This document shows, in pieces, positions 56,835 through 58,681 of a stretch of 64,000 nt of DNA (the first letter of the stretch is position 1; each line of letters opens with the position of its first letter). The notes under the pieces were generated by a model. It saw only the letters and a program-made list of their open reading frames with translations. It had not been told where the DNA came from and made no database searches. The position numbers and the translations under genes are program-made. Origin of the DNA: an archaeon GW2011_AR20. GTDB lineage: Archaea > Nanobdellota > Nanobdellia > SCGC-AAA011-G17 > GW2011-AR20. The DNA lies in contig CP010426.1 in the NCBI GenBank assembly GCA_000830315.1, positions 442,743-506,742 of the forward strand, in the 5' to 3' direction.

Positions 56835-56989
56835 CGCCGAGGGTGGGATTTGAACCCACAAGTCCTTGCGGACACTGGATCTTTGTGTGGTACTACAGGT
56901 CTCTGAAGTACGACTGTACTTAGCAATCTTACGCCATAATTTCAACTCAGGAATCATGTCAGCGCAGTACCAGATTGTGCCACCTCGGC
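56835..56989 (-). tRNA. tRNA-Ser(GCU) with two introns: 29/30 (56929-56959, 31 nt) and 37/38 (56881-56920, 40 nt)
   Basis: Exons 56960-56989, 56921-56928 and 56835-56880 give an 84-nt cloverleaf GCCGAGG..CTGGA TT-GCT-AA TCCAG, long variable arm, GTGGG-TTCAAAT-CCCAC, CCTCGGC-G73; both introns form BHB-like folds. Confidence 0.92.
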
Positions 56990-57628
56990 ATGATGCATAC
57001 TGCCGGTTTTTTGAAAAATTTTATACTTATTTAAATGTTTCGAGTTTTTTGGTCTGATTTCTTTAATCCATTTATGTAGCATGAATTTTCCCGCAACACA
57101 TAATTTTGCACTATTATTGCAATTCCAAATATAATTACGAAAATTGAGCTCATTTAGTAGGATAGATAGATCTTTAATTAATTTTTTGGAAGCTAAATCA
57201 AATTCAATTTTTGGATAATAGTTATTTTTGGTATGATTTTTATCAAATCTAAGGCACCCATCGGTATCGAATAATCCTCTTAAAAACGCTAATTTAATTG
57301 AATGAGATGACTTTTTCACATATTCAGGTATTTTTACGGTATAAGTTTTTGTCCCCGGTCTAAATCCATAATGAAGGAAGAATGTTGTATCCTCTTTTTT
57401 AGAAATTTGAACCCCATAACATCCGTTCTTTCCCCCGCTTCTAAATTTTGCATGAAATTTTTTGTGAAATATGGTTTGAAGTAATTGGATGACGTTGTGG
57501 TCGTAATATTCCTTTTCATTTAATGCGCCTCTTAATTCCCAAACTAAGCTTCGATTAGTTTTGTATAATGTTCCATCTCCTATATGCATGCCAATCAATT
57601 CAGCAATTTTTGAATTTATTTTTAACAT
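56954..57628 (-). CDS. Free-standing two-motif LAGLIDADG homing endonuclease; last 12 codons run through tRNA-Ser exon 1 into intron 1
   Basis: IAELIGMHIGDG and AFLRGLFDTDG; C-terminus HAEVAQSGTALT* is the tRNA 5' exon read as codons. Confidence 0.88.
   Translation of the reverse strand: MLKINSKIAELIGMHIGDGTLYKTNRSLVWELRGALNEKEYYDHNVIQLLQTIFHKKFHAKFRSGGKNGCYGVQISKKEDTTFFLHYGFRPGTKTYTVKIPEYVKKSSHSIKLAFLRGLFDTDGCLRFDKNHTKNNYYPKIEFDLASKKLIKDLSILLNELNFRNYIWNCNNSAKLCVAGKFMLHKWIKEIRPKNSKHLNKYKIFQKTGSMHHAEVAQSGTALT
57029..57041 (-). promoter_or_regulatory. BRE/TATA-like element inside the LAGLIDADG CDS, upstream of the functional tRNA-Ser
   Basis: GAAACATTTAAAT, identical to 57831-57843 upstream of the orphan 5' fragment. 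Confidence 0.55.
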
Positions 57629-57771
57629 TTTAAACTACCCTTACTTAATTGGTTGGAACTAGATAAATGATTTTATTTATATAACTCGCGGTTGTATGTC
57701 TGGCGGGAAATTTTAATTTACTAGTTAAAAATATTCTTTAAAATGATTCAAAATGAGATTCAAAAACGATC

Positions 57772-57805
57772 AATCCAGCGCAGTACCAGGTTGTGCCACC
57801 TCGGC
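57772..57805 (-). pseudogene. Orphan 5' fragment of tRNA-Ser (positions 1-34) lacking the 29/30 intron
   Basis: GCCGAGGTGGCACAACCTGGTACTGCGCTG|GATTG matches spliced exon 1 + exon 2 with one mismatch, then diverges. Confidence 0.9.
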
Positions 57806-57872: not shown

Positions 57873-57895
57873 TGTTCAATTTGTTCTAATTTCAT

Positions 57896-58080
57896 AGCGG
57901 AGTAGGACAGAAGTAATTAAATTACTGTCGAATCTGGAGTGTCCGTCGAAATAGAAATCCTATTGCGTAAGGCTCATAAGACTGTTTGAGACACCCGAAA
58001 ATATAAGATTTAATCTATATTCGGGACGGTCAGTGGTTCAAAGCGATATCTAAAATTTCGAGGAAGTCCACTCTCCGCTA
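57896..58080 (+). tRNA. Initiator tRNA-Met(CAU) with five introns: 57911-57932 (15/16), 57949-57970 (29/30), 57979-57992 (37/38), 58000-58027 (44/45), 58043-58066 (59/60; alternative register 58042-58065, 58/59)
   Basis: Six exons give AGCGGAG TA GGAC AGTCTGGAGT GTCC G TCGGG CTCATAA CCCGA AGGTC AGTGG TTCAAAT CCACT CTCCGCT A (75 nt), all four stems paired; A1-U72, G11-C24 and three G-C pairs at 29-31/39-41 are initiator hallmarks. Confidence 0.92.
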
Positions 58081-58681
58081 CATTCTCATTTAAAAAGGAA
58101 TTTATTCTACTTATATTTTTTTGATTATTTGAACCAATTATTTTATCCCACTTCTTAAGCTCTCTTTTACCATTTATTTGAACCCTAATTTTACCTTTCC
58201 CTATCTGGTAGGCTCCGAATTTAAAACCATATTTATTTAAAATACTTAAAAATTGATTTTGCATTGGTGAAGGCATAACCTTCATTTCTATTCTAGGATA
58301 TCTTACGCCATTATTGTTCACAATTGATAAACAACCGTCTGTATCAAAATAACCTCTAATAACCTCCTTATCATAGCGCAATGCGGAAGATGGTATTATT
58401 GCACGATTCCACTTAGGTGATTTCATAAGACCAATTTTATTTATTAAAATATTTATTATCTTTTGATTAAATATAAATAAATCAATCGCATTCTCGTTCT
58501 TTCTCTTTTTTATTATTGGTTTGACCTTAAATAATTTTATTACCAAATTTTTAATATAATTTAAATATGCTAAATCATCAATGAAATTAAGAGTAATTTT
58601 TATTCTATTATATTTTCTAGATATATGCCCATTACCCAATAAAACTCCTATAAATTCTGCTAAATCTCTATTAATCTCCAC
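58010..58681 (-). CDS. Free-standing two-motif LAGLIDADG protein (first motif GNG), antisense-overlapping the tRNA-iMet 3' half
   Basis: LAEFIGVLLGNG and EVIRGYFDTDG; GTG start; stop at 58010-58012 lies in intron 4. Confidence 0.85.
   Translation of the reverse strand: MEINRDLAEFIGVLLGNGHISRKYNRIKITLNFIDDLAYLNYIKNLVIKLFKVKPIIKKRKNENAIDLFIFNQKIINILINKIGLMKSPKWNRAIIPSSALRYDKEVIRGYFDTDGCLSIVNNNGVRYPRIEMKVMPSPMQNQFLSILNKYGFKFGAYQIGKGKIRVQINGKRELKKWDKIIGSNNQKNISRINSFLNENVAESGLPRNFRYRFEPLTVPNID

Follow-up and report, generated by a model that had tools for sequence, protein, structure and literature searches.

Introduction

How can a tRNA mature from a gene whose anticodon lies on an exon of eight nucleotides (nt) between two introns, and why should such a gene have been broken up so finely? 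Both questions are raised by a tRNA-Ser(GCU) gene of the archaeon GW2011_AR20, located in a 64,000-nt stretch of contig CP010426.1 that we refer to as the window. The gene occupies 155 contiguous nt on the minus strand, from 56989 to 56835. We consider it very probable that this is a functional gene and the sole tRNA-Ser(GCU) gene of its genome, with three contiguous minus-strand exons of 30, 8 and 46 nt whose introns are removed by EndA and RtcB. The genome is a single contig of 829,411 base pairs (bp), about 96% complete and of Woesearchaeota type. Coordinates are window positions unless prefixed G000:C1, G000 being this genome; L-numbers denote loci from related metagenome-assembled genomes (MAGs).

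The gene and its predicted spliced product

Exon 1 (GCCGAGGTGGCACAATCTGGTACTGCGCTG; 30 nt, 56960..56989, minus strand) supplies the 5′ strand of the acceptor stem, the D arm, position 26 and anticodon-stem positions 27-29. Intron 1 (31 nt, 56929..56959, minus strand) follows at site 29/30 and leads to the micro-exon, GATTGCTA (8 nt, 56921..56928, minus strand), which spans positions 30-37 and holds two anticodon-stem bases, U32, U33, the anticodon GCU and A37, just where the original prediction had placed the anticodon. Intron 2 (40 nt, 56881..56920, minus strand) interrupts the canonical site 37/38. The remaining 46 nt form exon 3 (56835..56880, minus strand), with A38, the 3′ strand of the anticodon stem, a long variable arm, the T arm, the 3′ strand of the acceptor stem and G73. 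Because an A is repeated at the intron 2 junction, that junction can be drawn at 37/38 or at 38/39, a one-base ambiguity that leaves the product identical.

Excision of 31 + 40 nt joins 30 + 8 + 46 nt into an 84-nt product, which ARAGORN calls as tRNA-Ser(gct) over its whole length. The predicted mature junctions read CUG|GA and CUA|AUCC, that is, CUG|GAUUGCUA|AUCCAG. The minimum free energy (MFE) fold of the spliced 84-mer is a cloverleaf at -37.4 kcal/mol (z = -3.7), and none of 200 shuffled sequences is as stable. Its acceptor stem has 7 bp, its anticodon stem, CUGGA/UCCAG, is Watson-Crick paired at 5/5 positions and its anticodon loop is UUGCUAA. U33, A37, a class II variable arm of 15-16 nt and G73 are features of an archaeal serine tRNA, and exon 3 encodes no CCA. 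The exons have 58% G+C versus 29.5% for the window. The boundaries, junctions and perfect 84-nt tRNA-Ser(GCU) sequence had all been predicted from the DNA, and they proved correct by ARAGORN, by the cloverleaf fold and by a blind recursive search. The strand had not been named in the prediction, which also considered the gene on its own, without its overlap with a LAGLIDADG gene or its recurrence in this lineage. The blind search removed up to three segments compatible with a bulge-helix-bulge (BHB) motif and scored each product with an explicit cloverleaf function; exactly these two introns rank first. The explicit score was used instead of an earlier solver with ARAGORN as judge, which was too permissive (791 solutions).

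About 40 tRNA genes were counted in the genome, in an inventory that requires contiguous T arms and acceptor stems and so undercounts genes with introns in those regions. By Infernal, ARAGORN, BLAST with the mature sequence and our own scan, this locus alone carries a GCU anticodon. AGU and AGC together account for 39% of serine codons, or 24.6 per 1000 codons, so that an annotation without this gene would describe a genome unable to read them. Such an omission is easily made, as had been anticipated. Default ARAGORN finds zero tRNAs in the whole window; with introns allowed, it miscalls the locus as a tRNA-Trp(cca) with a 77-nt intron or a tRNA-Phe(aaa) with an 887-nt intron. The Rfam tRNA model matches the T arm only, at 14.5 bits versus a threshold of 29 bits.

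Splicing motifs and the probable order of excision

BHB motifs were scanned for as a 4-bp helix between 3-nt bulges, cut after the second bulge base. Intron 1 is the top-scoring candidate in the whole 155-nt precursor. Its motif, of type HBh′ (BHB1), has a central helix in which GCGC of exon 1 (56962..56965, minus strand; tRNA positions 24-27) pairs with GCGU of the intron (56931..56934, minus strand) at 4/4 positions, including one G-U. The bulges are UG|A and AA|G, and the inner stem is the 7-bp CAUGAUU/AAUUAUG. This is in full the fold that had been proposed for intron 1, and its central helix, both bulges and inner stem are already available in the primary transcript. The motif of intron 2 (BHB2) is relaxed, of type hBH, with a central helix UUGC/ACAA paired at 3/4 positions and an h′ of 2 bp. 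The one mismatch is as originally described; a 9-bp hairpin also described inside this intron is only roughly right, folding imperfectly and with interruptions. Once intron 1 is removed, the outer helix of BHB2 scores at the scorer's maximum of 8 bp. That outer helix is the anticodon stem, which intron 1 breaks, and the pairing logic therefore makes it most likely that intron 1 is excised first and intron 2 second.

A group I origin for the introns was rejected. At 31 and 40 nt they are too short for a ribozyme core of ~200 nt, and Rfam is blank even at E <= 10.

For the splicing machinery, the genome encodes one EndA, a 190-aa open reading frame (ORF) at G000:C1:140580-141188 (-) of alpha type with both N and C domains (PF01974, 97 bits; PF02778, 59 bits). 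Its best match in the PDB is 3IEY_A, the alpha (catalytic) subunit of Nanoarchaeum equitans. A beta paralog was not found by phmmer against all ORFs of the genome. The absence of a second subunit would fit the link drawn in PMC5829648 between loop-bearing alpha4 EndA and many disrupted tRNA genes. RtcB is encoded as well (PF01139, 486 bits). Beside this lone EndA gene, most tRNA genes of the genome bear introns, many of them non-canonical.

The central helix of BHB1 uses the 3′ strand of the D stem and competes with it; in favor of splicing, the forced BHB1 fold lies only 3 kcal/mol above the MFE. Several observations weigh against it. The unconstrained MFE structure of the precursor lacks the BHB1 central helix. 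The central helix of intron 2 carries a C·A mismatch in this genome, and the forced BHB2 fold lies 7.5 kcal/mol above the MFE of the RNA that has lost intron 1. Further, only a single alpha-type EndA is found, and cleavage of relaxed motifs is in the literature mostly ascribed to (alpha-beta)2, epsilon2 or loop-bearing alpha4 enzymes.

Conservation of the micro-exon

Related loci were found through homologs of the LAGLIDADG ORF that lies upstream of the gene, in many MAGs of Woesearchaeota, Nanoarchaeota and Pacearchaeota. Two introns stand at the same sites in 17 distinct tRNA-Ser(GCU) genes, this one included. Their micro-exon is GATTGCTA in 16/17 and GACTGCTA in the remaining one, while intron 1 ranges from 19 to 36 nt and intron 2 from 11 to 45 nt. 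The anticodon stem shows compensatory changes across the introns at 27:43 (C-G/G-C), 28:42 (U-A/A-U/G-C) and 29:41 (G-C/A-U). In every one of the 17 genes the central helix of BHB1 is paired at 4/4 positions; the one double change is at pair 4 in L070 (GCGG/CCGU). That of BHB2 is fully paired in most relatives, and three others share the C·A mismatch seen here. Exon 1 is identical or nearly so in L023, L026 and L058, and intron 1 is about 80% identical to its counterpart in L026. Further relatives have intron 1 alone, intron 2 alone, neither of the two, or an additional T-loop intron.

The layout also recurs within the genome. Two short introns flank an anticodon exon of 7-8 nt in Ser(GGA) (G000:C1:689515-689625 (+)), Ser(CGA) (G000:C1:12565-12675 (-)), Leu(UAG) (G000:C1:163542-163667 (-)) and Ile(GAU) (G000:C1:295788-295908 (+)), and the two-intron Ser(GGA) gene is kept in three relatives (G001, G002 and G019). 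Conserved in relatives and repeated in at least four other genes of the genome, the micro-exon architecture is real, under selection and ordinary for this lineage. With 17 distinct genes, it is a well-replicated example of an 8-nt anticodon exon.

Some variation at these loci was seen in passing. The additional T-loop intron occurs in some Ser(GCU) alleles among L066, L067 and L079, downstream of the nuclease ORF, and L067 has three introns (29/30, 37/38 and T loop). In L081 and L084, degenerate partial tRNA copies adjoin the Ser(GCU) gene.

A helix between exon 1 and intron 2

The precursor MFE structure contains a helix of 9-10 bp between exon 1 and intron 2, which we call helix X. Its 5′ strand is UGGUACUGCG (56963..56972, minus strand; exon 1 nt 18-27), made of the D-loop GG and the D-stem 3′ strand. 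Its 3′ strand is UGUAGUACCA (56888..56897, minus strand; intron 2 nt 24-33), which stops 7 nt short of the 3′ splice site. An equivalent helix of 7-9 bp is found in 10/13 distinct genes with a long intron 2, at the same position in most, and the strands covary (UGGUAUUG/CAAUACCA, CGGUAUUG/CAAUACCG and GGCCAUU/AAUGGCC). MAFFT placed the intron strands in different registers, and the helix was therefore tested gene by gene; shuffles for each gene, combined by Fisher's method, give p = 5e-9, a value that is optimistic because the compared genes are related. Helix X adjoins the central helix of BHB1 on the exon strand and that of BHB2 on the intron strand. Since it abuts both, it may keep the precursor folded as a three-way junction in which the two motifs are presented.

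The overlapping LAGLIDADG gene

The ORF upstream of the tRNA gene, HE1 (56954..57628, minus strand; 224 aa, Pfam LAGLIDADG_3), overlaps exon 1 and has its stop codon in intron 1. Its last 12 codons are tRNA exon 1 plus the first bases of intron 1. Many HE1 homologs end in A-x-V-A-Q-P/S-G-T-A-L, which is exon 1 translated, and the overlap of ORF and tRNA is therefore itself conserved. The motifs GDG (D18) and FDTDG (D121 and D123) are intact and invariant in alignment A1, and profile matches are to 2DCH (a putative homing endonuclease), I-HjeMI and I-AniI.

HE1 and its kin are associated with particular tRNA genes. In a tree of 71 family members, the HE1 clade (n = 25; Shimodaira-Hasegawa-like approximate likelihood ratio test (SH-aLRT) 99) has a tRNA-Ser(GCU) immediately downstream in 22/22 resolvable cases. 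Members of a sister clade precede tRNA-Arg(UCG), those of another group tRNA-Gln(UUG), and the other partner tRNAs of the LAGLIDADG clades are scattered. Mapped on the tree, the tRNA-partner label changes 19 times versus 40 in shuffles, with 0/200 shuffles as low. A third LAGLIDADG paralog of this genome is also in the tree, on a very long branch and with imprecise coordinates, and should be ignored there. At about two thirds of 80 LAGLIDADG loci (the region set of L058-L137, L023 and L026), a tRNA gene on the same strand follows within roughly 0-150 nt. We found no description in the literature of this pairing of LAGLIDADG genes with tRNA genes, which was examined here for three tRNA species.

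The distribution of HE1 is patchy. Of 40 relatives in the genus, family and order of this genome, none has an ortholog at >40% identity; a protein at 75% identity to HE1 comes from a host with an EndA at only 56%. At the syntenic position, flanked by the same neighbours, genomes of the same genus have an intronless Ser(GCU) gene and lack the nuclease gene. The tRNA follows the same pattern. It is 80/84 identical to the L058 allele, though the EndA of that host is 56% identical, and only 67-68/84 identical to same-genus alleles from hosts with EndA at 79-86% identity. By contrast, Ser(GGA) is 80/84 identical within the genus.

A partial intronless copy of tRNA-Ser(GCU), nt 1-35, lies upstream of HE1 (57771..57805, minus strand). 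It runs contiguously across 29/30, ends at the anticodon base G34 and then diverges. At 35/35 positions it matches the spliced exon 1 and start of exon 2 of the L026 allele; against the downstream exon 1 there is a single D-loop difference (linear position 16; U in the downstream copy, C in the fragment). An AT-rich, promoter-like box of its own precedes it. Elsewhere, too, a promoter and a 5′ tRNA-Ser fragment are found upstream of the LAGLIDADG ORF (L060 1829-1856, L064 1844-1865 and L077 1913-1933). Those fragments are 21-28 nt long and end at positions 21, 22 and 28, and the one in L060 resembles the G000/L026 allele, not its own downstream gene. Taken together, the clade pairing, patchy distribution, syntenic intronless locus, foreign allele and upstream fragment speak for import: the two-intron gene appears to have come with the nuclease gene and to have replaced a resident intronless allele.

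Other features accompany the LAGLIDADG genes. Between the 5′ fragment and a second LAGLIDADG ORF (58010-58681, minus strand) is a heavily interrupted tRNA gene at about 57890-58085 (+); L023 has an equivalent antisense tRNA upstream of its nuclease gene. The third paralog (G000:C1:295053-295750 (+)), about 32-35% identical to HE1, sits between multi-intron tRNA genes, an Asn(GUU)-like gene (G000:C1:294802-294933) and the Ile(GAU) gene located above.

Discussion

We propose that transcription of the precursor is probably driven by a putative archaeal TATA box, TTTAAATA (57028..57035, minus strand), inside the 3′ end of the LAGLIDADG ORF and 38 nt upstream of tRNA position 1, or that precursor and ORF are co-transcribed. 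The promoter role of this element is inferred from its sequence; the codons at the box, K-H-L-N-K-Y, specify residues that are invariant in alignment A1. Helix X would probably hold the transcript in a splicing-competent, non-cloverleaf fold. The lone alpha-type EndA would cut in the 3-nt bulges of the two BHBs and RtcB would join the exons, roles that we infer because both genes are encoded. Intron 1 would leave first, and the anticodon stem could then form as the outer helix of intron 2. As no CCA is encoded, the mature 84-nt class II tRNA, ending in G73, would gain it post-transcriptionally.

Multi-intron tRNA genes with sequential splicing are already described in Thermoproteales and in DPANN archaea (named after Diapherotrites, Parvarchaeota, Aenigmarchaeota, Nanoarchaeota and Nanohaloarchaeota), and this gene adds an example. 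In Thermoproteales, multiple-intron genes, relaxed BHBs and obligatory sequential splicing are established, with three introns as the maximum quoted (PMC4033280, PMC8450103, PMC4090602), and the same order-by-pairing logic has been applied to closely spaced introns (PMC8450103). The multi-intron genes of Pyrobaculum, Thermofilum and Caldivirga (Sugahara et al. 2007/2008, as reported in PMC4033280 and PMC8450103) likewise combine several BHB-type introns in one gene, at 37/38 and at a non-canonical anticodon-stem site; one intron must leave before the second motif forms, and standard finders fail. Here, in contrast, the host is a DPANN archaeon with a genome of 0.83 Mb and 29.5% G+C, not a hyperthermophilic crenarchaeon, a single alpha-type EndA subunit is found rather than (alpha-beta)2, and a LAGLIDADG ORF is fused to the gene, which has a conserved helix between exon 1 and intron 2.

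Also comparable are several DPANN lineages in which an alpha4-type EndA with an extra loop, termed L3, goes along with a large number of disrupted tRNA genes (Kaneta et al. 2018, PMC5829648). The tRNA sets of these lineages are incompletely predicted and need manual curation (PMC5829648). Leaving the loop aside, the likeness lies in a single EndA nearest to the Nanoarchaeum catalytic subunit and in many non-canonical and multiple introns. That survey included one Woesearchaeota genome, and the present gene, the 8-nt anticodon exon and the nuclease linkage are absent from it. The split and tri-split tRNAs of Nanoarchaeum equitans and Caldivirga maquilingensis are also assembled from pieces by EndA and ligase, and their anticodon piece can be very short. 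Here, unlike in those systems, the three pieces lie within 155 nt on one strand, presumably in one precursor, and not at separate loci with complementary leaders. We rejected a split or tri-split, trans-spliced gene, since all exons are inside this contiguous stretch and the extra 5′ fragment is dispensable in relatives.

Free-standing homing endonucleases can lie beside their target genes, as does SegB of phage T4 in a tRNA gene cluster. With these enzymes and with the LAGLIDADG enzymes of archaeal rRNA introns (I-Tsp061I, PDB 2DCH; I-DmoI), HE1 shares both acidic motifs, a patchy occurrence, its link to an RNA gene that is highly conserved, and signs that the neighbouring gene has been co-converted. 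Unlike the rRNA-intron enzymes, this putative nuclease is encoded upstream of the tRNA gene and overlaps it, rather than inside a BHB intron.

Could the locus instead be a decaying pseudogene or a chance look-alike, with AGU and AGC (AGY) codons read by another RNA? The gene is invisible to ARAGORN and Rfam and its intron 2 BHB is imperfect, as such a reading might expect, but BLAST, Infernal and our own scan return no second Ser(GCU) candidate in a genome rich in AGY codons. The perfect cloverleaf, the G+C content of the exons against that of the window, and an architecture kept with compensatory changes in 16 other genes speak against decay as well, and we consider this explanation highly improbable. 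A different arrangement of the same locus would make the upstream fragment the true 5′ exon, its GCGC-UG|G being spliced to the 3′ site of intron 1 and ~850 nt being removed, nuclease ORF and downstream exon 1 copy among them. The fragment's promoter-like box is in its favor, as is a GCGC that, read from the sequence, is able to pair with GCGU at 56931-56934, and the resulting tRNA would be the same save for the one D-loop base. By inspection, however, neither an inner nor an outer helix flanks this central helix, and the fragments of other genomes, stopping at nt 21-28, are too short to serve as exon 1. L023, L026 and L058 have a complete downstream gene without any upstream fragment; the downstream exon 1 is therefore sufficient, and use of the fragment is very hard to credit.

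A functional gene spliced from three contiguous exons is thus our preferred account of how the tRNA is made, and a further suggestion, compatible with it, concerns why the gene is fragmented. The introns may have been kept or fixed because they break the DNA target of the adjacent LAGLIDADG enzyme, an idea that we find possible rather than probable. In its details, the enzyme would recognise the uninterrupted anticodon arm of Ser(GCU), tRNA and nuclease would spread jointly as one homing module, and self-immunity at the level of DNA would come from the introns while RNA splicing restores the tRNA. Several findings point this way: the exclusive pairing of the well-supported HE1 clade with Ser(GCU) and of its sister clades with Arg(UCG) and Gln(UUG), the intronless and nuclease-free syntenic genes of the genus, a tRNA allele that follows the nuclease and not the host, the intronless fragment ending at G34 with its counterparts in L060, L064 and L077, and the intact catalytic motifs in a family akin to the archaeal intron-encoded enzyme of PDB 2DCH. 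Anticodon-arm introns are present in 30/36 HE1-linked Ser(GCU) genes versus 1/12 unlinked genes from relatives (Fisher p = 6e-6), but this comparison is phylogenetically non-independent and leaves 6 HE1-linked genes that are intronless. Likewise, the Ser(GGA), Ser(CGA) and Leu(UAG) genes of this genome have the micro-exon layout without an adjacent nuclease gene, and the differing ends of the fragments in other genomes (21, 22 and 28) do not define a single cleavage site. With evidence on both sides, we put forward only tentatively, from sequence comparison, that the micro-exon layout is the immune form of a mobile LAGLIDADG and tRNA-Ser(GCU) module that spreads among Woesearchaeota by cutting intronless alleles and co-converting them to one in which introns at 29/30 and 37/38 divide the target into three pieces, its sister clades targeting Arg(UCG), Gln(UUG) and other tRNA genes.

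Beyond this locus, overlooking such a gene would add to a recurrent view, probably a mistaken one, that essential tRNAs are missing from DPANN genomes. Helix X is a testable candidate for an element that orders splicing by an endonuclease of one subunit. The question of fragmentation is itself directly testable, given the contrast within one genus at one locus between an intronless, nuclease-free gene and a gene with two introns and a nuclease. If the module exists as suggested, G000 would show the event caught, with an imported allele at the ancestral locus and, displaced from it, an intronless 5′ remnant terminating in the anticodon. Pressure from endonucleases would in that case help to drive the fragmentation of tRNA genes among DPANN archaea.

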